This document shows, piece by piece, positions 2,360 through 56,268 of a stretch of DNA of 64,000 bases; the stretch's first letter is position 1, and every line of letters starts with the position of its first letter. The translations under genes and the position numbers were made by a program. This stretch comes from Nitrospirota bacterium. Its GTDB lineage: Bacteria > Nitrospirota > 9FT-COMBO-42-15 > HDB-SIOI813. The notes beneath the pieces were generated by a model. The model made no database searches, was not told the DNA's origin, and saw only the letters and a program-made list of their open reading frames with translations. The stretch lies in assembly GCA_020851375.1 (NCBI GenBank), contig JADZCV010000048.1:14092-78091 (forward strand), given 5' to 3'.

Positions 2360-2371
2360 GATGAATGACTC

Positions 2372-6858: not shown

Positions 6859-6987
6859 GATGAAAATCCCCCTTAGTCCCCCTTTTCCAAAGGGGGAAAG
6901 TAATTCTTCTCTGTGTAAAAGGGGGAAATTAGTTCCCCCCTTTAGTAAAGGGGGGATAGGGGGGATTTGAACGGAGATTTTCGAGTG
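6859..6987 (+). repeat. Family-A structured repeat (copy A1): G5/C5 multi-hairpin element ending in SD plus GTG
   Basis: aaaatccccc ttagt ccccc ttttccaaa ggggg ... cccccc tttagtaaa gggggg atag gggggatttgaacGGAGAttttcgaGTG. The outer arms are aaatccccc and gggggattt. Similar copies occur at six other loci. Confidence 0.8.
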
Positions 6988-9397: not shown

Positions 9398-9468
9398 AGA
9401 TGAAAATCCCCCTTAGTCCCCCTTTACCAAAGGGGGAAAGGGGGGATTTGAACGGAGAATTTCAGGTG
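9398..9468 (+). repeat. Family-A repeat (short copy A2)
   Basis: gatgaaaatcccccttagtccccctttaccaaagggggaaaggggggatttgaacggagaatttcaggtg, directly fused to a family-B module. Confidence 0.8.
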
Positions 9469-9655
9469 AACCGTCATGAGCCCTTCGACTGTTCGGCACG
9501 CTCACAGCTCGGGGCTCACCAGGGTTCATGAAAACGTCATTCCCGCGCAAGCGGGAATCCAGACCGCGGCCTGGTTCTGGATTCCCACTCCCAGCTTAAG
9601 TCATGCGGGGACAGGTTCCGTGGGAATGACGGGTATTTAGGAGTATTTTCGAATG
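9456..9655 (+). repeat. Family-B structured repeat (copy B1, one unit) ending in AGGAG plus the ATG start of hemY
   Basis: ...cgtcattcccgcgcaagcgggaatccagaccgcggcctggttctggattcccactcc...gggaatgacgggtatttAGGAGtattttcgaATG. It is the reverse complement of the 25.2-kb array unit. Confidence 0.8.
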
Positions 9656-11026
9656 AAAGTTATAATCATCGGCGGCGGCATTTCCGGCCTTACTGCTGCC
9701 TACTGGCTGCACAAAAGCGGTATTGATGTCACCGTCCTCGAAAAAGGAGATAGGGCCGGCGGGTCTATACGCACAGAAACGCATAAGGGCTACCTTATTG
9801 AATACGGCCCCAACTCTACACTCGACCTGTACAAAGAGGCGGATGACCTGTGCGAGTCACTCGGCATCAGTGGATATAAGATATACGGCAGTGAAGATGC
9901 AAAAAACCGTTATGTCGTCAGAGACGGCAGATTAAGGCCTTTACCACTTGGTCCTCTCCAGTTTCTGTCAACTGACCTCTGGACTATACAAGGGAAACTG
10001 AGGCTTATGTGCGAACCATTTATCCGCAAGTTCGCCGGCAGCCACGAGGAGACGATCGCTGAGTTCGTTAAGAGGAGGACAGGACAGGAGTTCCTCGATT
10101 ATGCCATTGACCCCTTTGTTACAGGGGTGTTTGCAGGAGATCCCTACAAACTTTCATTAAAGAGCTGTTTTCCAAAGATGTATGGTATGGAGCTTGAGCA
10201 TGGCGGGCTTGTGAAAGCCGCAATATTCGGAAGGAAAAAGAAGGGTGAGCCAAAGCGAAAGATGCGCCTTTTTTCATTCAGGGACGGCCTGGGAACTTTA
10301 CCTGAGGCAATAAGAAAGACCCTTGGTGACAGGTTTGTTGGTGGGTGTAACGTGCTGTCAGTGAAGAAGGCAGAAAAAGGTTTCGAAGTTATTACAGAAA
10401 ATGTTTCTGCCCCCACTCCACAGCCTGGACTTTTCAAGGCCAACATCGTCATCTTTGCTACACCTGCCTGGGCAACAGCAAGGTTGATCCAGCCGATATC
10501 CGAATATGTCGCTGCCCATCTGATGCAGATACAATACGTCCCTGCAGTAATCGTCTTCACAGGGTTTGACAGGGGACATATAAAACAGAAACTCGATGGC
10601 TTTGGCTTCCTCATACCGCGGAAAGAGTCCCGTGAACGGGGTTACAACATCCTCGGGAGCATCTGGAGCTCCGAAATTTTCGCAGGACGTGCGCCTGAGG
10701 GTAAGGCCGCCTTCACAACCATCCTTGGCGGCGCAAGGAAGGATGACATACTCGAATACAGCGACAGGGAACTCATTGAAATGACATTGCGTGACTTAAG
10801 GTACATCCTCGGTATAGAAGAAAAACCTGAGTTCGTACAGCTAATACGCCATACACGGGCAATCCCGCAATATATCATCGGCCATCAGGAGCGCATAGAT
10901 GCTGTTCAGGAGGCTATCAGGAAAATTCCCGGCTTATATCTCTCAGGCAACTACCTCAACGGTGTTTCAGTTGGACACTGCATAGCCGAGGCAACAAAAC
11001 TTTCGGCTGTGATGAAAGGGGTCTGA
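9653..11026 (+). CDS. hemY: FAD-dependent protoporphyrinogen/coproporphyrinogen oxidase (HemY/HemG-type amine oxidase)
   Basis: 457-aa ORF beginning MKVIIIGGGISGLTAAYWL, a Rossmann FAD-binding GxGxxG motif. It sits in the hem cluster. Confidence 0.82.
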   Translation: MKVIIIGGGISGLTAAYWLHKSGIDVTVLEKGDRAGGSIRTETHKGYLIEYGPNSTLDLYKEADDLCESLGISGYKIYGSEDAKNRYVVRDGRLRPLPLGPLQFLSTDLWTIQGKLRLMCEPFIRKFAGSHEETIAEFVKRRTGQEFLDYAIDPFVTGVFAGDPYKLSLKSCFPKMYGMELEHGGLVKAAIFGRKKKGEPKRKMRLFSFRDGLGTLPEAIRKTLGDRFVGGCNVLSVKKAEKGFEVITENVSAPTPQPGLFKANIVIFATPAWATARLIQPISEYVAAHLMQIQYVPAVIVFTGFDRGHIKQKLDGFGFLIPRKESRERGYNILGSIWSSEIFAGRAPEGKAAFTTILGGARKDDILEYSDRELIEMTLRDLRYILGIEEKPEFVQLIRHTRAIPQYIIGHQERIDAVQEAIRKIPGLYLSGNYLNGVSVGHCIAEATKLSAVMKGV

Positions 11027-18193: not shown

Positions 18194-18558
18194 GAGCAGG
18201 GATTTTCAGGTGAACCGTCATGAGCCCTACGACTGTACGACAAGCTCACAGCTCAGGGCTCACCAAGGTTAATGAAAACGTCATTCCCGCGTAAGCGGGA
18301 ATCCAGACCGATGGCATGATTCTGGATTCCCACTCCCCGCTTGATCATGCGGGGACAGGTTCCGTGGGAATGACGGGTACTTAGGAGTATTTTCGAGTGA
18401 AACGTCATGAGCCTCAGCCTCACAAAGGTTAATGAAAACGTCATTCCCGCGTAAGCGGGAATCCAGACCGAGGCCTGGTTCTGGATTCCCACTCCCCGCT
18501 TGATCATGCGGGAACAGGTTCCGTTGGAATGACGGGTAGATAGGAGAATTTTCTGGTG
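18190..18558 (+). repeat. Family-B repeat (copy B2, about 1.8 tandem units) ending in the GTG start of fhs
   Basis: Two near-identical modules, each ...cgtcattcccgcgtaagcgggaatccagacc...ctggattcccactccccgcttgatcatgcggg[g/a]acaggttccgt[g/t]ggaatgacgggta(c/g)(t/a)taggag(t/a)attttc(g/t)(a/g)gtg. The first module begins at the stop codon of the TPM gene. Confidence 0.85.
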
Positions 18559-20184
18559 AAACATATCTCAGAAATTGCCGCTTCCATAGACCTTGTATCT
18601 CACGAAATTGACAAACACGGCCAATATATAGCAAAGGTCACACCAGCAGGTCTTGAAAAACGATTATCTCCACGACGCGGTAAATACGTCGTCCTTACAG
18701 CCATAACCCCAACCGGCTCAGGAGAAGGAAAAACAACTGTTGCCATAGGCCTTGGCATGGCAATGTGGCGGATCGGCAAAAAAGGGGTCGTCACCCTGCG
18801 ACAGCCGTCATTAGGGCCGCTTTTTGGTATGAAGGGTGGGGGCACAGGCGGAGGAAAGGCCATGCTGCTGCCGCAGGAGACGATAAACCTTGGTCTGACA
18901 GGCGATAACTACAGGGTGAACGCAGCCCACAACCTCCTGAGCTCCTTTGCAGATAATCATATCTACCGTAACAGCCCCATTAATATTGATCCCGCCAGCC
19001 TCTTCTGGCCGCGTACAGTAAATATCAATGACAGGGCGCTTCGTGAAATTATTGTCGGCTCAAATGAAAAGGGCGGAGGATTCCCTCATCCCGGCCGCTT
19101 TGTTCTTACAGAGGCGTCAGAGGTAATGGCAATCCTCTCCCTCTCTTCTACGCTCAAAGACATGAGGGAGCGTCTTGGCAGGATCATAGTCGCCTTAAAT
19201 AAGAACGGCGCCCCTGTGACAGCAGAGGACATAAAGTGTGCAGGGGCAATGGCAGTTATCTTGCGCGATGCACTGCGCCCCAACTTATTACAGACCTCAG
19301 AAGGGACTCCAGCCTTCGTACATACAGGACCGTTCGCAAATATAGCCCCGGGCATAAGTTCACTCATTGCAGATCAGCTCGCGCTATCTCTTGCTGATTA
19401 TGTAATAACAGAGGCGGGCTTCGGCGCTGATCTCGGTTTCGAAAAACTCGTAGACATAAAGTGCCGGTCGGGCAACCTCTATCCTGATTGCGCAGTGGTG
19501 GTTGTTACACTGAAAAGTCTTAAGACGCACGGAGGAAATCCAGACGGTGGACTTGCAGAGATAGACAGGGGAATGTCACATCTCGAAAAACAGATTGAGA
19601 ATGTAAAATATTTTAAAGTGCCCCTTGTTGTTGGTGTTAACAGACACGAGGACGATAAAGGGGATGAGATAAACTATTTGCTCAAATGTATTGAAGCACT
19701 TGGCGTAAGGGCGGTTACGGTGACGCCATGGAAAGATGGCGGGGCAGGGGTGGTTGACCTTGCAAAGGCCGTAGAAGAGATTACCGCAGGGCCCGTCACA
19801 GACACCAGACAGCGACGATTTCTATACGACCTGAATACCCCGGTCGAGGATAAAATTAACACGATAGCCCAAATTATGTATGGCGCAAAAGATGCAGCGT
19901 TCTCTGAAACGGCAATGATAAAATTACAACTGATAAACAGGCTGGGACTCAGCAACCTCCCCGTGTGCATGGCAAAGGTCCACAACTCACTCTCACATAC
20001 ACCTAAACTTTACGGAAGGCCAAAAGGGTTTACACTCCCGGTCGAAGAAATACATATTGCTGCAGGCGCTGGATTTATCTACCCGATCTGTGGAAGGATA
20101 TTTCCCCTCCCGGGCCTGCCATCCAAACCTCTTGGTGAAGAGATGGACATAGATACAGATACCTGGGAGATTCGTGGATTATAA
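18556..20184 (+). CDS. fhs: Formate--tetrahydrofolate ligase
   Basis: 542-aa ORF with a GTG start. It contains the P-loop ITPTGSGEGKTTVAIGL and the conserved FTHS body. Confidence 0.93.
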   Translation: MKHISEIAASIDLVSHEIDKHGQYIAKVTPAGLEKRLSPRRGKYVVLTAITPTGSGEGKTTVAIGLGMAMWRIGKKGVVTLRQPSLGPLFGMKGGGTGGGKAMLLPQETINLGLTGDNYRVNAAHNLLSSFADNHIYRNSPINIDPASLFWPRTVNINDRALREIIVGSNEKGGGFPHPGRFVLTEASEVMAILSLSSTLKDMRERLGRIIVALNKNGAPVTAEDIKCAGAMAVILRDALRPNLLQTSEGTPAFVHTGPFANIAPGISSLIADQLALSLADYVITEAGFGADLGFEKLVDIKCRSGNLYPDCAVVVVTLKSLKTHGGNPDGGLAEIDRGMSHLEKQIENVKYFKVPLVVGVNRHEDDKGDEINYLLKCIEALGVRAVTVTPWKDGGAGVVDLAKAVEEITAGPVTDTRQRRFLYDLNTPVEDKINTIAQIMYGAKDAAFSETAMIKLQLINRLGLSNLPVCMAKVHNSLSHTPKLYGRPKGFTLPVEEIHIAAGAGFIYPICGRIFPLPGLPSKPLGEEMDIDTDTWEIRGL

Positions 20185-21249: not shown

Positions 21250-21693
21250 TTACTTTTGTTTTGCCACCCATGCAGCTATTTCTTTATTAAACTTTTTTAA
21301 GATATCCAGCTTGCCTGTAAGGGCCTCGTATACCTTCTTTGAATCAAGGTTCACATATTCATGGATAAGCACATTCCTGAAACCTCCAAAACCTTCAAGT
21401 CCCTTTGACAGCTTCCTGGATATGACCTTCTTGTTTGCAAGTCCCCTGGTAATATCTTCATATTCATCACAGTATTCGGAATACATACTTGAGAGAATAT
21501 GTGCCCCGATATCAAAAACCATTTCTGCCGTAATTATGAATCCACGTTCAACAATCCACTGTGTTTTTATATCAGCCTTGTACTTATTCCATGAAATCCC
21601 CTTGTATTCCTCCAACACCTTCAGTGTCTCATCCATTTTAAGCAGCCGGTCTTCTATAGATTCTTTCCTATACACCATGACGGAGACCCTCAT
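21250..21693 (-). CDS. hepT: HepT-like (DUF86) toxin of a HepT/MntA type VII toxin-antitoxin pair
   Basis: 147-aa ORF with the R-x4-HxY motif in GGFRNVLIHEYVNLD near the C-terminus. It lies downstream of, and overlaps, the mntA gene. Confidence 0.78.
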   Translation of the reverse strand: MRVSVMVYRKESIEDRLLKMDETLKVLEEYKGISWNKYKADIKTQWIVERGFIITAEMVFDIGAHILSSMYSEYCDEYEDITRGLANKKVISRKLSKGLEGFGGFRNVLIHEYVNLDSKKVYEALTGKLDILKKFNKEIAAWVAKQK

Positions 21694-22072
21694 GCATGTT
21701 CCTGAGATAAATACGTCTCAGGTGTTTTTTATCCATATATGTCTGCCATGTCTTTAACTCAAAGTCATTCAGCAGGTCTTCATTCTTAAAATAAATAACC
21801 CTGCCTTCTCTTATTATCTGGTACCTGAAGGATGCAGGTTTATCGCTCATCGTGACAAGGTCAATCTTCTCCGTTCCCAGTGCTTTTGTTATCCTGGCCC
21901 ATAATTTACAATATCTATCAAGTGTAAGCTTCGGGGCATAGATGGCAATATCAATGTCAGAGGTCTTCCTTGCCTTTCCTGCAACGTGAGAACCAAAGAG
22001 ATAGGCAATCTCTACATCCTGAAATTCCTGCCAGATGGATGTGAGTTCCTTATTAATCTTTCGTATATTCAT
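21668..22072 (-). CDS. mntA: MntA-like minimal nucleotidyltransferase antitoxin
   Basis: 134-aa ORF. LFGSHVAGKARKTSDIDIAIY contains the GS-x9-DxD nucleotidyltransferase motif. Its last 26 nt overlap the hepT start. Confidence 0.78.
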   Translation of the reverse strand: MNIRKINKELTSIWQEFQDVEIAYLFGSHVAGKARKTSDIDIAIYAPKLTLDRYCKLWARITKALGTEKIDLVTMSDKPASFRYQIIREGRVIYFKNEDLLNDFELKTWQTYMDKKHLRRIYLRNMHEGLRHGV

Positions 22073-22149
22073 CAGATTGCCCTTGCCGTTAATGTAACAT
22101 TATACTAAGAATTCCCACGAAGTATAAAGACATTTATTTAACTTGATAA

Positions 22150-22296
22150 TTCCCTGTAGCTTGCTACAGGTTTTCCTGTCATTCCCACGAAAGTGGGAAT
22201 CCAGTTTTTGCTTTGATCTGGATTCCTGCTTACGCAGGAATGACGTTGAAGTTGCTTAGATACCCTGCAGCTTGCTGCAGGGTTCTTCATTCAGTA
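22150..22296 (-). repeat. Divergent family-B-like element (B3) bracketed by twin hairpins
   Basis: The core is gtcattcccacgaaagtgggaatccagtttttgctttgatctggattcctgcttacgcaggaatgacg (cf. the 25.2-kb unit). It is flanked by ccctgtagcttgctacagg (22152-22170) and ccctgcagcttgctgcaggg (22263-22282). Confidence 0.6.
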
Positions 22297-23738: not shown

Positions 23739-25160
23739 TTACGCCGCAATCCTTACAACTTTCACCTCAAGTATCTTTTTCGTTTCAGTGGTTACCCGGA
23801 ACCTCTCATCACCCCTGTATCCGGCAATCCACATAATCCCTTCCGGAGAGGTCAGAAGCGGTATCCTGTCTCTCTCTCTTCGGGATATTTTTAAATCAAT
23901 AAAATACTCCTTTATCTTTTTCTTCTTCCCCCCCATTCCCTGCGGGCAGAAGAAGTCGCCGTCCCTCCGGTTTCTGATGACCAGCGGTTCAGAGAATTTA
24001 CTCATATCAAACAAGGCAGCGCTTCTTCCGGCCTCTGTCGCATCAGTCAATCCTTCCTTCAGAACAGGGGAGGTCCGGATAGTTGTGTTAATTTTCATTC
24101 CAGCTTCCGGTACAATAGTATCCCCCGGCACCCTTACTGTATATGCATACTGAGGGGTTGATGTCACTGCTGACCTTAAATATATGCTGAATACATCTCC
24201 TCTTCTCTCAGCCGCGACACCCGCAGGAAAATCAATCTCCCCGGCCCTGTCATTTTGCAGCAGTGCGAGCGCCTCCTCTACATGCCTGCAGGAGAGGGCA
24301 ATACCCTCTGCCCCTTTAACAGCCTCTACAGCAAACCGTACGAGTCTCCTCTTCACCGGCTCCTCACAGGAGTCAAACCTTTTCACATCAAACTTTATCA
24401 TGCCTTCTGACTCATTTATTACCATATCCCGGAATATTTTTCTAACATAATTATCAAGAAATACATCCTCATCTCTTAAAATATTCAGACTCCTGACAAG
24501 TGTATCCATTATATTCGGATTATATTCCTTCGCAAGATGAGGTATAAGTTCCAGACGGATCTTATTTCTCAGATAAACAGGGGTCAGGTTTGATGAGTCA
24601 ATCCTGCAGTGGATATCATTTTCTGATAAATACTCTTTGATCTCTTCACGAAAGACCCCGATAAGGGGCCGTATTATCTTGTCCCTCACAGGCGGGATAC
24701 CGGAAAGGCCGTGAGACCCGGCCCCCCTGAGGAGACGCATCAGGAATGTCTCTGCCTGATCATCCGCTGTATGGCCAAGGGCAATCCTGTCTGCGCCGGT
24801 TTTGTCAGCGGCTAAACCAAAGAATCTGTAGCGCACCTCGCGTGCAGCCTCCTGTTTTGATATACGATACTCCCTGGCATATGCCGGAGTATCTGAATAC
24901 TCTGCAATTACCGGAACCCCGAGCGTCTTACCCATATCCTGGACAAACCTTGAATCTTCCTCTGCCTCTTCCCCGCGAAATCCGTGATTGAGATGAGCAA
25001 TATGAAGGGTGAGGTCATATTCATCCTGCAATTCTTTTAACAGATGAAGGAGACAGACAGAGTCAGGGCCGGAGGAAACACCGATGAGCACGGTATCTCC
25101 TTTTGCAAGCATATCATGGTGCCTGATAGTATCCCGGACTTTTTTTATTAACATGGTCAT
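23739..25160 (-). CDS. tilS: tRNA(Ile)-lysidine synthetase
   Basis: 473-aa ORF with the PP-loop IGVSSGPDSVCLLHLL and a C-terminal TilS substrate domain. Confidence 0.88.
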   Translation of the reverse strand: MTMLIKKVRDTIRHHDMLAKGDTVLIGVSSGPDSVCLLHLLKELQDEYDLTLHIAHLNHGFRGEEAEEDSRFVQDMGKTLGVPVIAEYSDTPAYAREYRISKQEAAREVRYRFFGLAADKTGADRIALGHTADDQAETFLMRLLRGAGSHGLSGIPPVRDKIIRPLIGVFREEIKEYLSENDIHCRIDSSNLTPVYLRNKIRLELIPHLAKEYNPNIMDTLVRSLNILRDEDVFLDNYVRKIFRDMVINESEGMIKFDVKRFDSCEEPVKRRLVRFAVEAVKGAEGIALSCRHVEEALALLQNDRAGEIDFPAGVAAERRGDVFSIYLRSAVTSTPQYAYTVRVPGDTIVPEAGMKINTTIRTSPVLKEGLTDATEAGRSAALFDMSKFSEPLVIRNRRDGDFFCPQGMGGKKKKIKEYFIDLKISRRERDRIPLLTSPEGIMWIAGYRGDERFRVTTETKKILEVKVVRIAA

Positions 25161-25161
25161 C

Positions 25162-25782
25162 CGAAAATGTTCCTATGTACCAGTCATTCCCACGGAACCT
25201 GTCCCCGCAGGATTTTTCACCCGTCATTCCCACGCAAGTGGGAATCCAGAACCAGGCCCCGGTCTGGATTCCCGCTTACGCGGGAATGACGTTTTTCATG
25301 ACCCCTTGTGAGCCCAGAGCTGTGAGCTTGTTGAACAGTCGAAGGGCCCATGACGGTTCACCTGAAAATGCTCCAAAGTACCCGTCATTCCCACGGAACC
25401 TGTCCCCGCAAGATTTTTCACCCGTCATTCCCACGTAAGTGGGAATCCAGAACCAGGCCATCGGTCTGGATTCCCGCTTACGCGGGAATGACGTTTTTCA
25501 TGACCCCTTGCGAGCCCAGAGCTGTGAGCTTGTCGAACAGTCGAAGGGCTCATGACGGTTCACCTGAAAATGCTCCTGTGTACCCGTCATTCCCACAGAA
25601 CCTGTCCCCGCAGGATTTTTCACCCGTCAGTCCCACGTAAGTGGGAATCCAGAACCAGGCCCCGGTCTGGATTCCCGCTTACGCGGGAATGACGTTTTTC
25701 ATGACCCCTTGCGAGCCCAGAGCTGTGAGCTTGTTGAACAGTCGAAGGGCCCATGACGGTTCACCTGAAAATCACTGCAGCT
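25162..25782 (-). repeat. Family-B repeat array (B4): three tandem units of about 201 bp between the ribF stop and the tilS start
   Basis: The unit ...acccgtcattcccacggaacctgtccccgcaggatttttcacccgtcattcccacgcaagtgggaatccagaaccaggccccggtctggattcccgcttacgcgggaatgacgtttttcatgaccccttg(t/c)gagcccagagctgtgagcttgt(t/c)gaacagtcgaagggc(c/t)catgacggttcacctgaaaat... is repeated at about 25178, 25380 and 25582 with a few SNPs. The ORF-track peptides across it are spurious. Confidence 0.88.
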
Positions 25783-26701
25783 TCGTCAGGACTGCCCTTG
25801 CATCCTCTACATCCTTCGTAATCTGCAATATCAACTCTTCCTTATCCCCGAACTTTTTTTCCTCTCTGATCATCCTGATAAACTGGACTGTCAGGTGCTC
25901 ATGGTAGAGCTGTCCGCTGAAGTCAAACAGGTATACCTCTATGCCGATCCTCTCCCCGGCAAATGTCGGCTGATTACCTATGTAGCATGCGCCCTCCAGG
26001 ATCATCTGACCCCGTAGTACCCTGACAGCATAAATCCCGTTTTGGGGAATAGCCTCATCAACCGTATAGATGTTTGCAGTAGGGTAGCCCAGCAGCATCC
26101 CGCGGTGATGCCCAGGCATAACGACCCCATCAACGGAATAATATCTTCCTAAAAGCCCGGCCGCAGTGTCAACCTCACCTTTCAAGAGGAGCTCACGGAT
26201 CCATGAACTGCTGACCCTCTTCCCTTCGATTACTACCGGCTCTGCCTCTTCGACCTCAAAACCGAGCATCTTTCCCTTTTGACGAAGATACGGGACATCC
26301 CCTGACTGACCTTTTCCAAATTTATAATTGGCCCCTACAATAATGACCCGGGCACCTATCTTGTTGCAGAGAAGGTCCTCTGCAAATTCATCCGGGGATT
26401 TGCCGGCAAACTCAGGCGTAAATTCAATGCAAATAACGATGTTTATTCCAAATGACTGAAAAAGTTCAATCTTTTCCTGGAGAGATATCAATTGACGGGG
26501 CGCCTTATCCGGCCTTAATACCTTGGCCGGATGAGGCTCAAACGTAATGACAACGCTGACAGCTCCTGTTTCAGACGCACGCCTGACCACCCTTTGCAGG
26601 AGCTCCTGATGGCCAAGATGAACTCCATCAAAGTTTCCAATAGTCACAACCGTATTGGTGAGACCTTTTGGAATGGCGGCAATGCCCCTGATGATATTCA
26701 A
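25772..26701 (-). CDS. ribF: Bifunctional riboflavin kinase / FMN adenylyltransferase
   Basis: 309-aa ORF with the N-terminal FAD-synthetase motif GNFDGVHLGHQ and a C-terminal riboflavin kinase domain. Confidence 0.9.
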   Translation of the reverse strand: MNIIRGIAAIPKGLTNTVVTIGNFDGVHLGHQELLQRVVRRASETGAVSVVITFEPHPAKVLRPDKAPRQLISLQEKIELFQSFGINIVICIEFTPEFAGKSPDEFAEDLLCNKIGARVIIVGANYKFGKGQSGDVPYLRQKGKMLGFEVEEAEPVVIEGKRVSSSWIRELLLKGEVDTAAGLLGRYYSVDGVVMPGHHRGMLLGYPTANIYTVDEAIPQNGIYAVRVLRGQMILEGACYIGNQPTFAGERIGIEVYLFDFSGQLYHEHLTVQFIRMIREEKKFGDKEELILQITKDVEDARAVLTKLQ

Positions 26702-28569: not shown

Positions 28570-28574
28570 ATTCA

Positions 28575-28696
28575 CACAAAAATCTCCAATCAAATCCCCC
28601 ATCCCCCCTTTAGTAAAGGGGGGAACTAATATCCCCCTTTTATATAGAAAGGAATTATTCTCCCCCTTTGAAAAAGGGGGACTAAGGGGGATTTAA
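28575..28696 (-). repeat. Family-A repeat (A3) between the hemC stop and the hemD start
   Basis: The reverse complement reads aaatccccc ttagt ccccc tttttcaaa ggggg ... cccccc tttactaaa gggggg at gggggatttgattGGAGAtttttgtgtgaat(ATG). Confidence 0.8.
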
Positions 28697-29622
28697 TTCC
28701 GAATTCCGTATACTTCCTGCAGAATTTCCTGCCCCCCCTGCGCCAACAGGCTTTCTGCAAGGGCTATCCCTGCATCCTCAGGATTATCAGCCGTCCCTGA
28801 CCTCTTTTCCCTTACCATCCTGCGTCCATCAACAGACGCAACAAACCCTTCGATTGCAATACCATCACCCTTCATTGTTGCGTAAGCGCCTATGGGAACC
28901 TGGCATCCGCCTTCGAGCCTTTTCAAAAAGGCCCTCTCTGCCCGAACACAGATGTTTGTCTCCATGTGATCAAGCGGTCTGATTATATCAAGTGTATCGC
29001 CGTCAGATTCTCTGCACTCTATACAAAGCGCTCCCTGTCCAATAGCAGGTACGCTGGTTGTTTCCGGCAGGTATTCTGTAATCCTGTCTGCCCATCCAAG
29101 CCTTCGGATGCCTGCTGCGGCAAGAATAATGGCATCAAACTCACCAGCCTCGAGTTTTTTTATCCTCGTGTCAAGATTCCCCCTGAGCGGATGGATAACA
29201 ATATCAGGTCTCTGGTTAAGCAGCTGGGAAATCCTCCTGAGGCTGCTCGTACCTATACGTGCGCCGTGCCTGAGGTGTAAAAATCCACTCCCGTCCCTGG
29301 ACAGCAGGGCATCCCTCGGATCTTCACGCTCCGGGATGGCGCCTATGCAAAGTCCTTCAGGGAGGATGGCAGGGACATCCTTCATACTATGAACGGCTAT
29401 ATCAATGTCATTCCGTAAAAGGGCGTCTTCGATCTCTTTCACAAAAAGCCCCTTGCCTCCTACCTTTGCAAGCGGGACATCGAGTATCTTATCACCTGTG
29501 GTCTTTATCTTCTGTATAGTAACAGTGATGCCTGCATAACGGGCCTCAAGCTCTGACTTTATATGCTCTGCCTGCCATATGGCAAGTTTGCTTCCCCTGC
29601 TGCCGATCCTGATTTCTTTCAC
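28693..29622 (-). CDS. hemC: Hydroxymethylbilane synthase (porphobilinogen deaminase)
   Basis: 309-aa ORF with a GTG start, beginning MKEIRIGSRGSKLAIWQAEHIK, the typical HemC N-terminus. Confidence 0.9.
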   Translation of the reverse strand: MKEIRIGSRGSKLAIWQAEHIKSELEARYAGITVTIQKIKTTGDKILDVPLAKVGGKGLFVKEIEDALLRNDIDIAVHSMKDVPAILPEGLCIGAIPEREDPRDALLSRDGSGFLHLRHGARIGTSSLRRISQLLNQRPDIVIHPLRGNLDTRIKKLEAGEFDAIILAAAGIRRLGWADRITEYLPETTSVPAIGQGALCIECRESDGDTLDIIRPLDHMETNICVRAERAFLKRLEGGCQVPIGAYATMKGDGIAIEGFVASVDGRRMVREKRSGTADNPEDAGIALAESLLAQGGQEILQEVYGIRN

Positions 29623-29624
29623 TC

Positions 29625-29830
29625 GAAAATACTCCTAAGTATCCGTTATTCCCACAGAACCTGTCCCCGCAGGATTTTTCACCCGTCATTCCCACGCAAG
29701 TGGGAATCCAGAACCAGGCCACAGTCTGGATTCCCGCTTACGCGGGAATGACGTTTTTCATGACCCCTTGCGAGCCCAGAGCTGTGAGCTTGTCGAACAG
29801 TCGAAGGGCTCATGACGGTTCACCTGCGGA
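29625..29830 (-). repeat. Family-B repeat (B5, one unit) supplying AGGAG plus the GTG start of hemC
   Basis: ctttcactcgaaaatactcctaagtatccgttattcccacagaacctg...gtcattcccacgcaagtgggaatccagaaccaggccacagtctggattcccgcttacgcgggaatgacg... Confidence 0.85.
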
Positions 29831-32142: not shown

Positions 32143-33936
32143 ATGAAGAAGAATATTTACCACAAATTAATCCGTTTCTTGTTTTTGGTCACTATATTGG
32201 CCCCCCTCAGGGTCTACGGGTATAATCCGGTAGAATCGAGCATCCAGTTACGAGAACGGGGAATACAAAGTTATCTGAGTGAATCTGCCTTTCTGTCCAC
32301 CATCAGGAATAATGATGCATCTTCAGTTAAGCTATTTCTGGACGCCGGCATAAATCCCGATGCCAGATACCAGGATAATACAACTGCATTAATACTCGCT
32401 GCAGGAAATGGAAACGAAGTTATTGTTAAAGCCCTTCTCGACCGGGGTGCCGACGCAGGGGCGGTGAATAAGGATGGCCTGACCCCCCTGGTAACAGCCT
32501 CCATACATGGGCATACGGCTATTGTAAAGTCCTTGCTGGAACGAACTTCAAACGAGGACGAAAAGATTGCAGCACTGATGGTTGCAACTATGAAGGGGCA
32601 TACCGGCATCGTTCAGGCCCTTCTGTCCGGCGGGGCTGATGTCAATGCCAGTGACAGGTATGGCTGGACCCCCCTCATGTATGCAGCAAGGATGGGGCAC
32701 ACAAGGATTGCAAAGATTTTACTGGCTAACGGAGCTTTGGCAAACAACAGTGACAGCTCTGGACAGACCGCCCTTTTACTTGCAGTCAAAGAGGGTCACT
32801 ACGATATTGTAAAAATCCTTATTGATAAGGGCGCGGATCCGAATATCAAAGACTCCGAAGGAAAAACAGCCCTGGTATATGCAACAGAGAGAGGATATAA
32901 TGACATCGTAAGGGTTTTGCTTGATAATGGCGCCAGCCCGGTTAGGGGTAAGTTTGGCATGTCATTGCTGGAAACTGCCGCAATCAATAATCAAAGTAAC
33001 ATTGTGGAAACCCTTCTGGACAGAGGGGTAGATAGTGATGTCAGCAATGATGTACTTATGCTTGCAGCGGGCCTCGGTCACAGCGAAGTTGTTCAGTCCC
33101 TTTTGTCAAGAGACGCAAATGCCAATACCATGACTGAATCCGGAACAACGGCGCTGATGATTGCATCAGAGCAGGGACATCCGGATGTCGTCAGGATATT
33201 GTTGAACAAGGGTGCCAGGATTGATGATGTCACTGCTCAGGGCGAAACAGCCCTGATGATCGCTGTAAGGCAGGGGCATACTAATGTGGTGCAATACCTG
33301 CTCGAGAAGGGTGCAAGAATAAATGTTTCTGCACATGAAGGCGATACTCCGCTAATTGCAGCGATCAGATACGGATACCCGGAAATTGTCCAGATTTTAC
33401 TGGATGAGGGCGACAAAATTGATGCTGGTACAAGCGAAGGCGATACTCCGCTCATGATTGCTGCAAGGTACGGCAGAAATGAAATTGTACAAATCCTCCT
33501 GTCCAGAGGTGCAAATGTGAATGCCTCAACAAAGGCCGGCATGACCCCGCTTATTGCTGCGGCAATGAAGGGCGAGGTCAAAATTGCAAAATCCCTGCTG
33601 GATAAGGGAGCGGATGTAAATGCAGCTACTAAAGAAGGAATTACCCCTTTGATATTTGCTGCAGGCTTCGGCAGCAAAGACATGGTGAGCACGCTGCTGG
33701 CCAGGAACGCTCATGTAAATGCAAAAACCTCGGAAGGTTTAACAGCCCTGATAGTAGCCTCGGAGCAGGGTTACTCAGACGTCGTGCTAATCCTTTTGGC
33801 AAATGGCGCTGATACAACTATAAGAACAATAGATGGCCAGACAGCCCTGACGATGGCGGAAAAAAAACACCACTCCGGCATCACCAGGTTGTTTACCCTT
33901 AACTATCCCTTAGTAAAGAATCGTGCAGGATTGTAA
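32143..33936 (+). CDS. Secreted ankyrin-repeat protein (about 17 ANK repeats)
   Basis: 597-aa ORF with a signal peptide MKKNIYHKLIRFLFLVTILAPLRVYG, followed by 33-aa units G-TPL--A---GH--IV--LL--GADVNA repeated throughout. Confidence 0.82.
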   Translation: MKKNIYHKLIRFLFLVTILAPLRVYGYNPVESSIQLRERGIQSYLSESAFLSTIRNNDASSVKLFLDAGINPDARYQDNTTALILAAGNGNEVIVKALLDRGADAGAVNKDGLTPLVTASIHGHTAIVKSLLERTSNEDEKIAALMVATMKGHTGIVQALLSGGADVNASDRYGWTPLMYAARMGHTRIAKILLANGALANNSDSSGQTALLLAVKEGHYDIVKILIDKGADPNIKDSEGKTALVYATERGYNDIVRVLLDNGASPVRGKFGMSLLETAAINNQSNIVETLLDRGVDSDVSNDVLMLAAGLGHSEVVQSLLSRDANANTMTESGTTALMIASEQGHPDVVRILLNKGARIDDVTAQGETALMIAVRQGHTNVVQYLLEKGARINVSAHEGDTPLIAAIRYGYPEIVQILLDEGDKIDAGTSEGDTPLMIAARYGRNEIVQILLSRGANVNASTKAGMTPLIAAAMKGEVKIAKSLLDKGADVNAATKEGITPLIFAAGFGSKDMVSTLLARNAHVNAKTSEGLTALIVASEQGYSDVVLILLANGADTTIRTIDGQTALTMAEKKHHSGITRLFTLNYPLVKNRAGL

Positions 33937-35116
33937 AGAAACAAGGAAAATTGCCGCAAATGTTGCGCGGCTATCGAATCTGCTGACACGGGACCGGGCA
34001 GACCTCCCTCACTCATATCTAAAGGACAATGAGCTGCGGGAGGCATATATCGCTTATTATCTACCTGCGAATATGTATAAGGTGCACCTCCCCCTAAGGG
34101 AACTATCCCGTCATCCGGCAGGGGTTCTCAGGAAAGACAGGCTTCGTATCCTTGATCTTGGCTCCGGTCCTGGAACAGCAATCCTTGGCATCATGGACTT
34201 CTTTTCCGGATCTTCCGATAAACCTTTCCTTGAGTTTACCGCAGTTGACCCTGTTGAAGAAAACCTGATGGAAGCGTTGCGGCTCTTCCGGTCTTTCAAA
34301 GAAGATGCCAGCGCAGATGCCTCGCTAATAACTGCCAAATCAGTAATCGAGAGAACTAAATCTCTTCCGCAAGGACCGTTTGATATTATTATTATGTCTA
34401 ATGTCCTGAGCGAGGCGGGTCATCCGGCAGCCGGACTTGAAAAAATCCCCCTTACTCCCCCTTTTTCAAAGGGGGAAATAAGACCCTCCCCTTTAGAAAA
34501 GGGGGGAAGGGGGGATTTGAATCCGGATTACCGGTTGAACCTGGTGAAGTCCGTGATAAGCGGGCGCCTTGCCACTGACGGAAGCCTTATCATTATAGAA
34601 CCGGCCCTCCGTGAGACATCACGGGAACTGCTTGAGGTCAGAGACGGCTTGTTGAAAGGCGGGCTTCATATCTACTCACCGTGTCTCATGAATAATCCGT
34701 GCCCGGCCCTCACCAATCCCAAAGACTGGTGTCATGAAGATATACCGTGGGATCCACCGGCGGCTATCCGGGAAATAGACAAATTGACCGGCTTGAGAAA
34801 AGACTCCCTGAAGTTTTCCTATCTGGTTATCAGAAGGGACGCCCTCTCCATCAGAGACATCGTCAGAGACAACACCTTCAGGGTAGTCAGCGAACCGCTC
34901 GTTTCAAAAGGAAAGATCGAGTTTTACCTGTGCAATGCAGGCGGCAGACGGCTTGCAGTAAGACTGGACAGGGATAAAAGCAATTTGAATGAACAATTTT
35001 CAACTCTTAAGCGGGGCAATATCATTTCATTCGAGGGTCTGGTTGATGAAGGGAAGAGGCTTCGGCTCGTAAAGGAGACTCTCACCCATCCCTTTTCCGT
35101 GAGGGCAGAGGAATGA
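33923..35116 (+). CDS. Rsm22-like SAM-dependent methyltransferase carrying an in-frame family-A repeat insertion
   Basis: The N-terminal region LLTRDRADLPHSYLKDNELREAYIAYYLPANMYKV...ILDLGSGPGTAI resembles the Rsm22/COG5459 MTase. A 27-aa segment KIPLTPPFSKGEIRPSPLEKGGRGDLN is encoded by the repeat. Confidence 0.55.
   Translation: MQDCKETRKIAANVARLSNLLTRDRADLPHSYLKDNELREAYIAYYLPANMYKVHLPLRELSRHPAGVLRKDRLRILDLGSGPGTAILGIMDFFSGSSDKPFLEFTAVDPVEENLMEALRLFRSFKEDASADASLITAKSVIERTKSLPQGPFDIIIMSNVLSEAGHPAAGLEKIPLTPPFSKGEIRPSPLEKGGRGDLNPDYRLNLVKSVISGRLATDGSLIIIEPALRETSRELLEVRDGLLKGGLHIYSPCLMNNPCPALTNPKDWCHEDIPWDPPAAIREIDKLTGLRKDSLKFSYLVIRRDALSIRDIVRDNTFRVVSEPLVSKGKIEFYLCNAGGRRLAVRLDRDKSNLNEQFSTLKRGNIISFEGLVDEGKRLRLVKETLTHPFSVRAEE
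34441..34522 (+). repeat. Family-A repeat (A4), intragenic and in-frame
   Basis: aaaaatccccc ttact ccccc tttttcaaa ggggg aaataagaccctcccctttagaaaa gggggg aa gggggatttgaa, inside the 33923..35116 ORF. The reading frame is maintained across it. Confidence 0.8.
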
Positions 35117-41165: not shown

Positions 41166-41801
41166 TCAGTCTTTCCTCGTGATAAAGTATGAAAAACCTT
41201 CCTCTGACAGTTTCTCTGCCAGATATTCCGCCCGCTTGATATCCTTAGTAGAACCGACACGTACCCTGTAAAACTGTTTATCCTTTGTCCCGAAAGTTTT
41301 TATATACACGTCCTGATATCTGCGGTTCAATTTTTCCTTTAGTCTTATGGCATTCTCCTCCAACTCAAAAGAGCCCACCTGTACTGTAAAATCCGTCAGG
41401 CTCTCTCCCCATTTCAATACCTTTATCTCAACCCGGGATAATCCCTTTTCTGCCATTCCAATTTCCCGGGCAGCCGAGTACGACAGATCTATGATGCGGC
41501 CGTCTACAAAAGGACCCCTGTCATTTATCTTTACTACTACGGACTGGTCATTCTCCAGGTTTGTGATTTTTGCAACCGTGCCAAGGGGCATGAGTTTATG
41601 AGCCGCAGTGAGGTCATACATATTGTATATCTCGCCGCTTGACGTAGGCTTGCCGTGAAAATCCTCACCATACCACGACGCTATACCCCTCTCCACATAG
41701 CCCGCTGCATAGGGAGACCTGTGGGCAGGCAGGGTACAGGAGGAAACGACAAGTGCAACAATAAAAATAAACAGGTGCGGTATCTTAAACGACCTCTCCA
41801 T
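41166..41801 (-). CDS. rlpA: Septal ring lytic transglycosylase RlpA family protein (DPBB plus SPOR domains)
   Basis: 211-aa ORF with a signal/lipo region, then [60 protein letters not shown] (the RlpA DPBB fold). The C-terminal segment FTVQVGSF...YRVRVG is a SPOR domain. Confidence 0.85.
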
Positions 41802-44229
41802 CTTCCCTCTCTGCTAATTTTACAACTCCGGCAACCTTATCATTATCTTCAATATTAATAAGCCTTACCCCCTGGGTATTGCGGCCAATGATGGATATGT
41901 CCCTCGTCTTCATCCTTATTATCATACCTGCAGACGTAAGTATCATTATCTCGTCATCTTCAGTCACCTGTATGGCTGAAATGGCCTTGCCGTTTTTCTG
42001 GGTGACTTTTATAGTGAGGATCCCCTTGCCGCCGCGCCCCTGCATCCTGTACTCAGACAGATCTGTCCTTTTCCCGTAACCCCGTTCAGTAACCGTCAGA
42101 ATGGAAGAATTGTCCTGCACTATCTCCATACCTACAACAAAATCGTCTTCATCAAGATCAATCCCCTTGACACCCCTTCCGACCCTCCCTATAGTCCTGA
42201 TATCTTCCTCGTTGAAGCGGATTGACATGCCATTATGCGTACTCAGCAGAATCTCCTGATTGCCTGACGTAATTCGGACTGACCCTAACTTATCACCTTC
42301 ATCAAGCAGTATGCCGATTATACCGCCCACCCTTATGCTGCTGTAAACATTGAGCGGGGTCTTTTTAATCACGCCCTTTATGGTTGCCATAACAACATAT
42401 TCTGTTTCACTGAAGACCTTTACCGGCAACACAGCAGTAACGCGTTCATCCTTGTTTAGCTGAAGCAGGTTTACTATGGCCTTGCCTTTTGCAAGCCTGC
42501 CTGCCTCCGGTATCTGGTGCACCTTCATGCTGTAAACCTTACCGCTGTCTGTAAAGAAGAGCAGGTAGTCGTGCGTGGACGCAACAAAGAGGTGCTCAAC
42601 AAAGTCCTCCTCCTTTGTCTCCATCCCTATCTTACCCTTTCCTCCCCGTTTCTGGCTCCTGTATGTCGTTACCGGATTCCTCTTTATGTATCCGGTGTGG
42701 GAAATCGTTATTACCATATCTTCTTCAACGATAAGGTCTTCTATATCAATCTCTTTTGTCTCAGGGACTATCTCTGTCCTCCGGGAGTCTGAGTATGCCT
42801 CCTTAATTTGTGTCAACTCATCCATTATTATCTTCATCACAAGGGCATCGCTGGAAAGTACGGAATTCAGATATGCAATCAGCTCAATGAGCTGTCTGTA
42901 TTCTTCCTCAAGCTTTTCACGTTCAAGGCCTGTAAGCCTCTGCAACCTCATATCGAGTATGGCCTGGGCCTGAATGGCTGAAAGGGTAAACCTGGCAATC
43001 AGTGCACCCTTTGCCTCCTCAGGAGTCCTTGACCTCTTTATCAGGTTTATTATCTCATCAAGGTTAGCCAGCGCTATTTTGAGGCCCTCCAAAATGTGGG
43101 CCCTCTCTTCTGCCTTCTTCAGCTCATACTGGCTCCTCCGGACTACCACCTCACGCCGGTGTTCTATAAAATAACCGAGCATGTCCTTCAGATTCAGGAT
43201 TCTTGGCTGATTATTAACAAGGGCCAGCATTATGATGCCGAAACTGCTCTGCATCTGGGTATGTTTATACAAGTGATTAAGGATTATCGCAGCCTGCTCC
43301 CCTCGTTTTACTTCAACGACGATACGCATCCCATCGCGGTCTGATTCATCCCTGACCTCAGAAATCCCCTCAATTTTCTTATCTCTCACAAGTCCTGCGA
43401 TCGCTTCTATAAGCTTTGCCTTGTTTACCTGATAGGGGATCTCGGTAATAATAATGCTCTCCCTGTCTGTCCTTTGATTGGTCTCTATGAGCGCCCGCGC
43501 CCTCATCTGAACGATTCCCCGGCCAGTCCTGTAAGCCTCCCGGATCCCGGTGAGACCATGAATAAAACCTGCAGTGGGAAAGTCAGGGCCCTTAATGATG
43601 CCAGTCAGCTGGTCCACAGTTACATCCGGGTTTTCAATATACATAATCAGACCGTCCACAATCTCGCCAAGATTATGGGGTGGGATGTTCGTGGCCATAC
43701 CGACAGCAATTCCCGCTGCACCGTTTATAAGCAGGTTAGGTATCTTTGCAGGGAGGACAAGCGGTTCTTCCATTGAGCCGTCATAATTCGGGATGAAGTC
43801 TACGGTCTCCTTGTCAATGTCAGCCAGCATCTCACTGGTAATCCTGGACATCCTGATCTCGGTATAACGCATCGCTGCAGGCGGGTCTCCGTCAACAGAG
43901 CCAAAGTTTCCCTGTCCGTCAATCAGCGTGTATCTCATCGAGAAGTCCTGGGCAAGCCTCACAGCGGTATCGTAAACAGCGACATCACCATGCGGGTGAT
44001 ATTTACCAATAACATCGCCGACGATCCTCGCCGACTTCTTATACGGCCTGTTCCATACAACGCCCATCTCATGCATGGCAAACAGGACACGCCTGTGAAC
44101 GGGCTTCAGGCCATCTCTTATATCAGGCAGGGCCCTTCCTACGATAACACTCATGGCATAGTCAAGATACGAAGACCTCATCTCATCTTCGATACTTACC
44201 GGCACCCTTCTTTCGCCACCTATAGCCAA
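41785..44229 (-). CDS. gyrA: DNA gyrase subunit A
   Basis: 814-aa ORF containing [33 protein letters not shown] and the active-site region AAMRYTE. A TTG start is inferred, because an in-frame TGA lies upstream. Confidence 0.95.
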
Positions 44230-44246
44230 TTCATGCCCTCCATGCG

Positions 44247-44343
44247 TTCACTCGAAAATCTCCGTTCAATTCCCCCTATCCCCCTTTACTAAAGGGGGGG
44301 AACGAATTTCCCCCTTTGGAAAAGGGGGACTAAGGGGGATTTC
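44247..44343 (-). repeat. Family-A repeat (A5) between gyrB and gyrA
   Basis: The reverse complement reads aaatccccc ttagt ccccc ttttccaaa ggggg aaattcgtt ccccccc tttagtaaa ggggg atag ggggaattgaacGGAGAttttcgaGTGaac. Confidence 0.8.
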
Positions 44344-44368
44344 TCATCTGCCTTTGTGAGCCCCCATT

Positions 44369-47960
<3,592 letters not shown>

Positions 47961-47980
47961 ATTATCACCTTCCTTTTCTT

Positions 47981-49300: not shown

Positions 49301-49589
49301 TTAAACATTCCACAAACAATTTACAAACATAGTTATCAACAGGTGTTAATAACCCTGTTAATTACTTACATTACAAAGAGTTGAATATATATGAACATGC
49401 AGCTTAAATATACTTATTGGTACTGAATGAGGGACTTTTTACTATAACAGACTATTTATATAAAGGCAATGTCATAATACTTAAAAATGTCCCCGGTTAT
49501 AAACAACTTCATCAACTGAATTACCCTTATTATTCAATTAATTATAAATCTATCCACAAACTAACAGCTATTAATACTACTACTATATT
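49301..49589. other. Putative chromosomal replication origin (oriC): an AT-rich region with DnaA-box-like 9-mers upstream of dnaA
   Basis: The region is more than 70% AT. DnaA-box-like 9-mers (8 of 9 matches to TTATCCACA) are TTATCAACA at 49333, TTATAAACA at 49497 and CTATCCACA at 49550. A run atattttaaatatatatatttatataa lies at the distal end. The gene order is dnaA-dnaN-gyrB-gyrA. Confidence 0.5.
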
Positions 49590-55828: not shown

Positions 55829-55829
55829 T

Positions 55830-56172
55830 CGAAAATACTCCTAAGTACCCGTTATTCCCACGGAACCTGCCCCCGCAGGATTTTTCACCCGTCATTCCCA
55901 CGCAAGTGGGAATCCAGAACCAGGCCCTGGTTCTGGATTCCCGCTTTCGCGGGAATGACGTTTTTACGATACCTTGTGAGCGCAATCTCATGACGGTTCA
56001 CCTGCAAATGCTCCTAAGTACCCGTTATTCCCACAGAACCTGCCCCCGCAGGATTTTTCACCCGTCATTCCCACGCAAGTGGGAATCCAGAACCAGGCCC
56101 CGGTCTGGATTCCCGCTTTCGCGGGAATGACGTTTTTACGATACCTTGTGAGCGCAGTCTCATGACGGTTCA
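55830..56172 (-). repeat. Family-B repeat (B6, about 1.7 tandem units) supplying the SD and start for gmhA
   Basis: cttcactcgaaaatactcctaagtacccgttattcccacggaacctg...gtcattcccacgcaagtgggaatccagaaccaggccc(tg/cg)gt(tc/c)tggattcccgctttcgcgggaatgacg... appears twice. Confidence 0.85.
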
Positions 56173-56268
56173 TCTGAAAATCCCCGTTCAAATCCCCCCT
56201 ATCCCCCCTTTAGTAAGGGGAGAACTAATTTCCCCCTTTGAAAAAGGGGGACTAAGGGGGATTTTCAT
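56172..56268 (-). repeat. Family-A repeat (A6) fused to the B6 array, after the hpf stop
   Basis: tccccgttcaaatcccccctatcccccctttagtaaggggagaactaatttccccctttgaaaaagggggactaagggggatttt. Confidence 0.8.

Follow-up and report, generated by a model that had tools for sequence, protein, structure and literature searches.

The intergenic spacer between ribF and tilS in a 64-kb stretch of Nitrospirota DNA (the whole of which is called the window here) is filled by a tandem array of hairpin-rich repeats. The spacer probably consists of three head-to-tail copies of a mosaic repeat that is non-coding and non-autonomous, is confined to one Nitrospirota species, and has spread by targeted insertion 3' of the pentanucleotide RTGAA. 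What the sequences show is the modular anatomy of the units, the identity of their hairpin motif, their species-specific insertion, their abutment on start codons, and one clean presence/absence polymorphism. From these features we infer how insertion would proceed, which enzyme may act, and what effect on expression, if any, might follow.

Both flanking genes lie on the minus strand and were assigned with Pfam: ribF (FAD synthetase/riboflavin kinase) at 25772..26701, ending in the TGA at 25772-25774, and tilS (tRNA-Ile lysidine synthetase) at 23739..25160, with its ATG at 25158-25160. The order of transcription is ribF, array, tilS, and the spacer (25161..25771, minus strand, 611 nt, delimited by Tandem Repeats Finder and the sequence itself) holds nothing besides the array. 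Tandem Repeats Finder placed the array at 25163..25772 with a period of 201, 3.0 copies, 94% matches, and a score of 1120. A preliminary description of the locus had claimed three head-to-tail copies of a 201-bp unit occupying the entire gap up to the tilS ATG, both of which are borne out. In the direction of transcription, the spacer opens with ATTTTCAG (25765-25772), a partial tail of 8 nt; its initial A (25772) doubles as the last base of the ribF TGA. Unit 1, proximal to ribF (25564..25764, 201 nt), unit 2 in the middle (25362..25563, 202 nt, its doublet spacer, CCGATGGCC, being longer by one inserted nucleotide), and unit 3, proximal to tilS (25161..25361, 201 nt), follow on the same strand, and the tail of the last, AGGAACATTTTCGG (25174 to 25161), abuts the tilS ATG. 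The description of the copies as perfect, with about 5 SNPs, did not survive gapped pairwise alignment, in which identity is ~95-96.5% and unit pairs differ by 7-10 mismatches and one 1-nt indel. A four-copy alignment of the three units and a solo copy at hemC, 4 kb away, contains 20 variable positions, most of which vary among the three units themselves. The units differ from the solo copy by 10-13 mismatches, SNPs are shared in a mosaic pattern, and the middle unit is unlike every other copy in the window. The array units are about as distant from each other as from the hemC copy, and therefore repeated insertion or conversion fits at least as well as a single recent duplication; the preliminary suggestion that the array could mark a recent expansion is not supported. 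The RibF protein of the window is identical to NCBI MCC7203372.1, and TilS and HemB share 90% clusters with MCC7203371.1 and MCC7203373.1, which are proteins from Nitrospirota metagenome-assembled genomes (MAGs).

Each unit is modular. Oriented with the gene it reads GTGAA, CCGTCATGAGCCC...GGGCTCGCAAGGGGTCATGAA, AAACGTCATTCCCGCG...(doublet)...GGGAATGACGGGTAnnTAGGAGnATTTTCrr, RTGAA, where commas mark module boundaries. The H module (~62 nt) consists of CGTCAT followed by a GAGCCC...GGGCTC hairpin, and the B-core (~134 nt) of an inverted doublet of a 28-nt hairpin, followed by the tail GGAG-N-ATTTTC-NN-RTGAA; the last 13-18 nt of the B-core are termed tail M. The left boundaries of the modules read RTGAA followed by AAACGTCATT and RTGAA followed by CCGTCAT. 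In unit 1, GTGAA and H run from 25764 to 25698 and the B-core from 25697 to 25564. At the internal junction located at 25357..25374 (minus strand), tail M reads GGAGCATTTTCAG followed by GTGAA, presenting a Shine-Dalgarno-like GGAG, a 9-nt spacer, and GTG; a second internal junction lies at 25559-25576 (minus strand), and tail M of the last unit, together with the tilS start (AGGAACATTTTCGG followed by ATG), occupies 25158..25174 (minus strand). Within H modules (e.g., 25698-25764; also L128-L132), internal repeats of the form (TTCGACTG)n and (CTCACAG)n vary in number by copy and strain, and some H copies carry deletions of 26 nt or more.

The hairpin of the B-core is, as judged from its sequence, a pan-bacterial motif that has already been described: the dRS3 hairpin has been on record since 2000, and the Neisseria Transformation Sequence (NTS) and the "Ssn-related motifs" (SRM), together with Ssn, since 2025. 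The NTS is a 28-nt sequence, CGTCATTCCCGCGMAVGCGGGAATCYRG, that contains dRS3 and was generalised to SRM (Chenal et al. 2025, PMC11893778). SsnA, a small GIY-YIG protein, binds the NTS hairpin only as single-stranded DNA and in one orientation only, cutting a few nucleotides upstream; Ssn GIY-YIG nucleases that bind and cut NTS/SRM single-stranded DNA were reported from Neisseria and Wolbachia, and NTS/SRM and ssn co-occur across phyla, copies of the motif often flanking the ssn gene (PMC11893778). Cleavage requires GTC 5' of the palindrome, while binding requires a C right after it (PMC11893778). In the window, the dRS3 pattern ATTCCC-N8-GGGAAT is found at 15 sites, 5 of them in the array, against 0.01 expected from shuffles, and the published SRM search pattern has 9 matches against 0.2 in shuffles. 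Three NTS matches are exact, nine have at most one mismatch (three of these in the array), and 16 have at most three; all nine near-canonical copies are in the sense orientation relative to the gene that follows. The flanks in all array copies are CGTC-ATTCCC...GGGAAT-C, the oriented flanks that characterize NTS/SRM. The canonical hairpins lie on the minus strand at 25667..25694 (unit 1, CGTCATTCCCGCGTAAGCGGGAATCCAG, which matches the SRM search pattern), 25466..25493 (unit 2), and 25264..25291 (unit 3), each with one mismatch to the published NTS. Their inverted partner arms lie on the plus strand at 25222..25249 (unit 3, the NTS variant CGTCATTCCCACGCAAGTGGGAATCCAG, with A:T in place of a stem G:C), 25423-25450 (unit 2), and ~25624-25651 (unit 1, mutated, GTCAGTCCC). 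Two ATTCCC-N8-GGGAAT hairpins per unit had been described, and this holds for five of the six in the array; the sixth (25628-25647) has lost the motif match through a T->G change (AGTCCC). The preliminary equation of the hairpin core with the Neisseria dRS3 motif in an organism other than Neisseria is strengthened, as the longer, oriented NTS is matched too. Folding likewise agrees with the predicted hairpins, including the ccagaacc...ggtctgg stem: the doublet arms and the CCAGAACC/GGTCTGG extension form a hairpin of ~70 nt in both the minimum free energy and the centroid structure. One unit folded as DNA has a predicted energy of -48.9 kcal/mol (z = -6.9), and the whole spacer as RNA one of -325 kcal/mol (z = -9.1).

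The distribution of the hairpin is far wider than that of the unit. A scan of one genome per species found the 27-nt core GTCATTCCCRCGNAAGYGGGAATCCAG in at least 120 genome stretches, mostly as solo copies or inverted doublets, and the carriers among the matches listed include Alpha-, Beta-, and Gammaproteobacteria, Desulfobacterota, Nitrospirota, Chloroflexota, Candidate Phyla Radiation (CPR) lineages, Planctomycetota, Acidobacteriota, Gemmatimonadota, and others. H, A (the second core family, described below), or M modules are present in none of the 120 loci from other phyla among the matches listed. The H/B junction pattern CAGGTGAACCGTCATGRGCCC was found in only five metagenome contigs, all from assembly WBZO01, which represents a sister strain. 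On plasmids, the hairpin alone, and not the rest of the unit, found matches, in Neisseria and Sphingopyxis. There are 52 viral or prophage contig stretches (L138-L189, IMG/VR) that contain the exact NTS, CGTCATTCCCGCGNAAGCGGGAATCCAG, and partner arms in other phyla (GTDB genomes L003-L122) carry compensatory stem variants, namely ATCCCCGC/GCGGGGAT, ACCCCCGC/GCGGGGGT, and ATGCCCGC/GCGGGCAT.

Comparison with relatives indicates the state of the locus before the array was acquired. Four relatives, with TilS 76-82% identical, keep the order hemA-hemC-hemD-hemB-ribF-tilS-hpt-rsmI, implying that the ribF-tilS adjacency is genuine. Their ribF/tilS junctions consist of a 4-nt overlap in two relatives (L134/L135, L137), a 28-nt gap (L136), or a 33-nt gap with a solo M-like sequence, GGGTTTTCGG followed by ATGAA (L133). 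Such overlap or near-touch suggests ancestral translational coupling, and on this comparison of sequences the array is a species-specific insertion into a formerly coupled junction. No NTS was found in 57.6 kb of the relatives' loci, versus 16 in the 64-kb window. Family-A-type hairpins are present in NTS-free relatives (L134, L136, L137), for example in the hemA-hemC gap of L134, which implies that the A/H/M scaffold is older and that the NTS doublet expanded recently, in this species only.

Empty and filled sites point to the target of insertion. RTGAA, a pentanucleotide with a background of 0.26% of positions, stands both directly before each module and at its end. At hemC, the empty site in L133 reads ...TTTTTCAGGTGAA joined to AGAAATCAGG (core ...CAGGTGAA joined to AGAAATC), and the filled site in the window reads ...CCGCAGGTGAA, then 201 nt ending in ...TTTTCGAGTGAA, then AGAAATCAGG (core ...CAGGTGAA, 201 nt ending in ...CGAGTGAA, AGAAATC). 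Downstream of rsmI, the empty site in L127, a strain of 92% nucleotide identity, reads GCTAATGAA joined to ATAAATGTC (core AATGAA joined to ATAAATG), and the filled site in the window reads CTGAATGAA, then a 148-nt element ending in ...ATCAAGTTAA, then ATAAATGTC (core AATGAA, 148 nt ending in ...AAGTTAA, ATAAATG). The BLAST alignment of L127 with the window breaks at the exact base of insertion. None of the right ends of the elements (GTGAA, GTTAA, and ATGAC) is a copy of the target on the left. The APS-kinase gene was considered as a further empty/filled comparison and rejected, the two genes not being orthologous. Adjoining the 148-nt element, and separate from it, a HepT/MntA toxin-antitoxin pair (a HepT-like RNase and a nucleotidyltransferase, 21250-22072) forms an insertion of ~0.8 kb that is missing in L127. 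Furthermore, the sister strain matches the window at 92-94% identity over the hemD-hemC segment, and upstream of hemC it carries (L130) a B-tail, H, an A-core, a tail, and ATG, in place of the one B unit and GTG of the window. The orthologous site differs between strains, indicating that modules, Shine-Dalgarno sequence, and start codon are exchanged together.

The tail carries a Shine-Dalgarno-like sequence plus start codon. The tail motif ATTTTCNNRTGAA occurs at 12 sites in the window versus 0.14 expected, every one inside an element. In the window, 8 of the 9 gene-proximal tails have an RTG that shares the reading frame of the following gene and falls where Pfam domain coordinates lead one to expect its N-terminus. 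The genes that start in this way encode HemC (domain from residue 4), a protoporphyrinogen-oxidase-like flavoprotein (Rossmann fold from residue 2), formate-tetrahydrofolate ligase, a SIS-domain protein, a HemN-like protein, a Wza-like exporter, HemD, and TilS; in the sister strain, CysC and a hydrogenase-like gene also begin at a tail RTG. The predicted initiation of tilS uses the AGGA-N10-ATG of the last unit, and a start at its first ATG (25160) agrees with the N-terminus of the relatives, M-x-x-L-I-K/R-K; the NCBI model begins two codons later. In L133, a relative without B elements, solo tail-like sequences stand at the starts of hemC (TTTTTCAG followed by GTGAA), tilS (GGGTTTTCGG followed by ATGAA), and murJ (GGGGCATTTTCTG followed by ATGAA), and at hemD via a short upstream open reading frame (ORF) (L133 positions 6040-6064, 9930-9953, ~7100-7131, and 17707). 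These may be footprints or ancestral target sites.

Other copies in the window share this arrangement. The solo 201-nt copy lies between hemA and hemC (29623..29823, minus strand), its tail GTG (29622-29620) being the hemC start. A tandem doublet of a 173-nt variant, with a 26-nt deletion in H, lies at 55829..56173 (minus strand), preceded by a family-A element (~56168-56268), and its tail GTG starts the SIS-domain gene (55828). Another tandem doublet, at 18210..18555 (plus strand), belongs to a 159/187-nt variant whose second arm contains a nested hairpin; the tail GTG of this doublet, at 18556, starts the formate-tetrahydrofolate ligase gene. At 9400..9652 (plus strand), a family-A core is followed by one B unit, with the tail ATG at 9653 starting the gene of the protoporphyrinogen-oxidase-like flavoprotein. 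The 148-nt NTS-doublet element downstream of rsmI (22138..22285, minus strand) stands directly 3' of ATGAA; it has inverted arms of ~65 nt and contains two inverted NTS hairpins, each flanked by a hairpin of the CCCTGCAG-CAAG-CTGCAGGG type. Family A is defined by CCCCCTTT...AAAGGGGG hairpins, begins with ATGAA followed by AATCCCCC, and ends in the family-B tail, GGAGATTTTCGA followed by GTGAA; its elements lie at 6860-6989, 9400-9470, 28570-28697, 34442-34539, 44246-44347, 56168-56268, and 59861-59990. The core at 34442-34539 is in frame inside an Rsm22-like methyltransferase gene (ORF 33923-35116, plus strand), at about residues 173-205 (...GLEKIPLTPPFSKGEIRPSPLEKGGRGD...), in a manner resembling the Rickettsia palindromic elements inserted in coding sequence. 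The L133 orthologue of this protein (70% identical) has a different, shorter loop at that position.

A possible course of events may be outlined as follows. Hairpin-bearing single-strand elements would insert 3' of RTGAA without target duplication, which is how IS200/IS605 derivatives and repetitive extragenic palindromic (REP) sequences behave at their short targets. A parallel with IS200/IS605-type elements was drawn for NTS/SRM repeats in the discussion of PMC11893778. Each insertion would recreate RTGAA at its 3' end, and new copies would land at the ends of resident copies, yielding same-orientation tandem arrays and A/B/H mosaics; such a self-regenerated target would account for both. 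RTGAA corresponds to a start codon plus AA, and insertions at start codons would be tolerated because the tail restores a Shine-Dalgarno sequence at 9 nt and an in-frame RTG-AA. By this course, ribF and tilS would have come to stand 611 nt of structured sequence apart, with tilS starting from the Shine-Dalgarno sequence and ATG of the last unit. By analogy with the published motif, an Ssn-type nuclease, should the genome encode one, would cleave at the three sense-strand NTS of the array when these are single-stranded. The B-core has its left boundary 3 nt to the 5' side of CGTCATT, close to the reported cutting position of Ssn.

Several observations weigh against this interpretation. No ssn (GIY-YIG), Y1/RAYT, or IS110-type gene was found in the 64-kb window by a motif scan, tblastn with the Ssn homologue from L052, Pfam searches of most long ORFs and the longer small ones, and Logan annotation for 632-5552, and none of these genes was found in ~5 kb of flanking unitigs (~4 kb and 1.3 kb beyond the window). 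Among the matches listed, ssn lies within 8 kb of the motif at only 1 of 120 loci from other genomes, so its absence from the window says little. Family-A cores share the RTGAA junctions without CGTCAT or an NTS; hence Ssn alone cannot account for all modules. GIY-YIG nucleases are not known to rejoin DNA. The empty/filled comparisons number two: one is against a relative of 78% TilS identity, and in the other a 2-nt AA duplication may have occurred. The gyrA gene (44229) and one sister-strain gene (L128) are not started at the tail RTG, which there opens an upstream ORF of 6-7 codons (6 at gyrA). The strict H-B-H-B-H-B alternation of the array is equally expected from unequal crossing-over. 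Finally, Logan unitigs from six runs with identical TilS or RibF all end inside the array, 16-83 nt from its edges, leaving the internal junctions of this MAG-derived locus without an independent assembly.

Unequal crossing-over or slippage is a serious rival, although it is considered clearly less probable than targeted insertion. According to this account, one composite unit was inserted or inherited once and was then tripled, with later mutation and gene conversion with dispersed copies, and no targeted insertion took place. The units are strictly head to tail, in one orientation and with a regular period, doublets of other variants stand at two further loci, and recombination is the presumed cause of length changes in the arrays of neisserial intergenic mosaic elements (NIME; PMC1797815), all of which speaks for it. 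However, the distance between units is as large as that between them and the solo hemC copy, arrays that mix modules (A-B, A-B-B, B-H-A) are impossible by local duplication alone, and at two sites clean insertions begin exactly after RTGAA. The two processes are not mutually exclusive.

It is rather unlikely that the array is a selected cis-regulatory device, that is, a structured intergenic RNA whose copy number sets the output of tilS (and of hpt and rsmI) relative to ribF, in line with the tuning of downstream genes suggested in the preliminary description. The location within an operon and the very stable predicted structure would suit such a role. No sigma-70-like promoter was predicted in the array, and terminator-like hairpins with T-runs were predicted on the antisense (plus) strand only; with no terminator on the sense strand, read-through from ribF to tilS is likely. 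In addition, each unit supplies a Shine-Dalgarno sequence with GTG, and the ancestral translational coupling has been replaced. Against this, the unit precedes the unrelated genes of HemC, the SIS-domain protein, formate-tetrahydrofolate ligase, and the protoporphyrinogen-oxidase-like protein, close relatives manage without an array, and Rfam gave no match at gathering score, with only chance-level miRNA and RsmY matches (E > 0.1). A 21-codon mini-ORF that begins at each GTG is not conserved, being broken in other copies by the 26-nt and other out-of-frame indels, and two of its three variable sites are non-synonymous. The sole hint of copy-number polymorphism is one SNP: in unitig L123, the ribF-adjacent SNP state is that of the tilS-proximal unit, a weak hint from sequence that copy number may differ between samples. 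Tuning of tilS expression by copy number is possible.

Mobilisation as a REP/BIME-REPIN system by a RAYT, an IS200/IS605-like Y1 transposase, with no association with Ssn, appears improbable. An inverted doublet that folds into a long hairpin and is dispersed between genes resembles such systems, and elements of the IS200/IS605 kind are recognised by landing 3' of a short target that is not clearly duplicated. Nevertheless, the hairpin corresponds base for base to the NTS, which is tied to Ssn both statistically and biochemically, its 5' flank is CGTC and not a GTAG-type tetranucleotide, and no ORF for a PF01797-type Y1 transposase was found among the window ORFs searched with Pfam.

An equally improbable alternative is that assembly created the three-copy array, or else the junction of ribF with tilS, by leading a de Bruijn graph path through a repeat with dispersed copies. 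A single MAG contig is the source of the copy number of 3, the repeat is dispersed (at least nine units in 64 kb), and the Logan unitigs stop close to the array edges, as described above. The adjacency of ribF and tilS and the entire gene order are nevertheless kept in the four relatives, those unitigs reproduce both outer junctions with unit-specific SNPs in independent samples, the three units are distinct with a middle one unlike any other in the window, and similar tandem junctions exist at two other loci in the window and in a sister-strain contig. Doubt thus attaches only to the exact number 3.

Other candidates were tried and rejected: a protein-coding repeat (201 nt being 67 codons) by 4-10 stops per frame, the frame shift in the 202-nt unit, and the lack of an NCBI gene annotation there; a conserved 21-codon mini-ORF by the indels and substitutions already mentioned; and a CRISPR or integron array by the lack of spacer-like unique segments, an attC-type core, and cas or intI genes. 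Spurious ORFs of 50-117 aa born of the repeats occur at 25084-25640, 18253-18634, 55815-56191, and 9476-9640, with peptides such as VIPAKAGIQ, WIPAYAGMT, DSRLRGND, and SFPRKRESR.

Targeted insertion of a mosaic repeat, the preferred interpretation, places these elements beside several known systems. With the NTS/SRM of Chenal et al. (2025, PMC11893778) they share the 28-nt sequence, the CGTC 5' flank, the C after the palindrome, the hairpin, many copies, clustering around genes, and spread across phyla. Here, in contrast, the motif forms an inverted doublet inside a modular element (H, core, and Shine-Dalgarno/start tail), abuts start codons, and builds regular tandem arrays; that paper describes no target pentanucleotide, empty/filled sites, or translation-initiation tail. 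NIME likewise consist of ATTCCC-N8-GGGAAT arrays separated by repeat segments of 20-150 nt, vary between strains at a given locus, and are mosaic in composition, and in 2007 they were stated to be absent outside Neisseria (PMC1797815). The array conforms to the NIME/dRS3 pattern, with five intact dRS3 and one mutated copy and alternating spacers of 22-23 and ~140 nt. It differs in being a regular two-spacer array and not a patchwork of >100 RS families, in its Nitrospirota host, and in its position in a housekeeping operon instead of among surface-antigen genes. The dRS3 of Neisseria also serves as an integration site for filamentous prophage via an IS110-type recombinase; Pfam analysis of the window ORFs found no prophage or recombinase gene beside any copy. 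REP/BIME, REPIN-RAYT, and IS200/IS605-derived elements are similar in the inverted hairpin doublet (~70 nt), in being non-autonomous, intergenic, and strand-specific, and in apparent insertion 3' of a 4-5-nt target. REPIN-RAYT systems include a cognate RAYT gene with REPs on its flanks and a conserved 5' GTAG-type tetranucleotide, and non-autonomous IS200/IS605-type elements have subterminal hairpins but no terminal inverted repeats. They differ in that the elements here carry the Ssn motif and not a GTAG REP, that no Y1 transposase was found in the window, and that the target here is at the same time a start codon. Correia elements are bounded by long terminal inverted repeats, show a TA duplication, and provide genes with promoters or RNase III sites. 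Like the Correia repeat enclosed elements of Neisseria (PMC1797815), the elements described here are small non-autonomous repeats just upstream of genes that would alter expression signals, but they are without terminal inverted repeats and supply a Shine-Dalgarno sequence and start codon. What is new here is the modular element with a translation-initiation tail, the apparent targeting of RTGAA, and the triplet between two formerly overlapping essential genes in Nitrospirota.

Some further features of the window may be recorded. The minus strand carries dnaA, dnaN, gyrB, and gyrA one after another (41785-49589), with a 290-nt gap upstream of dnaA (49301-49589), and the window probably spans the replication origin; on both sides of this putative origin, the orientation of the elements follows the direction of the genes and not that of replication. 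Direct repeats at multiples of 120 nt at ~58-59 kb correspond to a gene for a TPR-repeat protein (58051-59784, minus strand), and the gene of a 597-aa ankyrin-repeat protein (32143-33936, plus strand) adjoins the Rsm22-like gene.

In practical terms, the repeats are an annotation hazard, since they can shift start-codon calls, as in the NCBI model of TilS, and break short-read assemblies. The locus represents a species with a recent expansion of the motif, of which relatives with TilS 76-82% identical have none, and its empty and filled sites point to RTGAA; it bears on the questions of how the NTS multiplies and what role it plays outside Neisseria. A portable ribosome-binding site and start codon would explain how a selfish array of 0.6 kb could come to lie between formerly overlapping essential genes. 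More speculatively, and with a probability that we regard as low, NTS/SRM repeats in general could be more than nuclease recognition sites, namely non-autonomous single-strand transposable elements, targeted to RTGAA, building arrays by restoring that target, carrying a portable Shine-Dalgarno sequence and start codon, and perhaps freed by Ssn. If true, this would be the first case of a GIY-YIG enzyme driving a family of REP-like repeats, which would explain the expansion of NTS repeats left open in PMC11893778, and their portable translation start would let such elements colonise start codons in essential operons.

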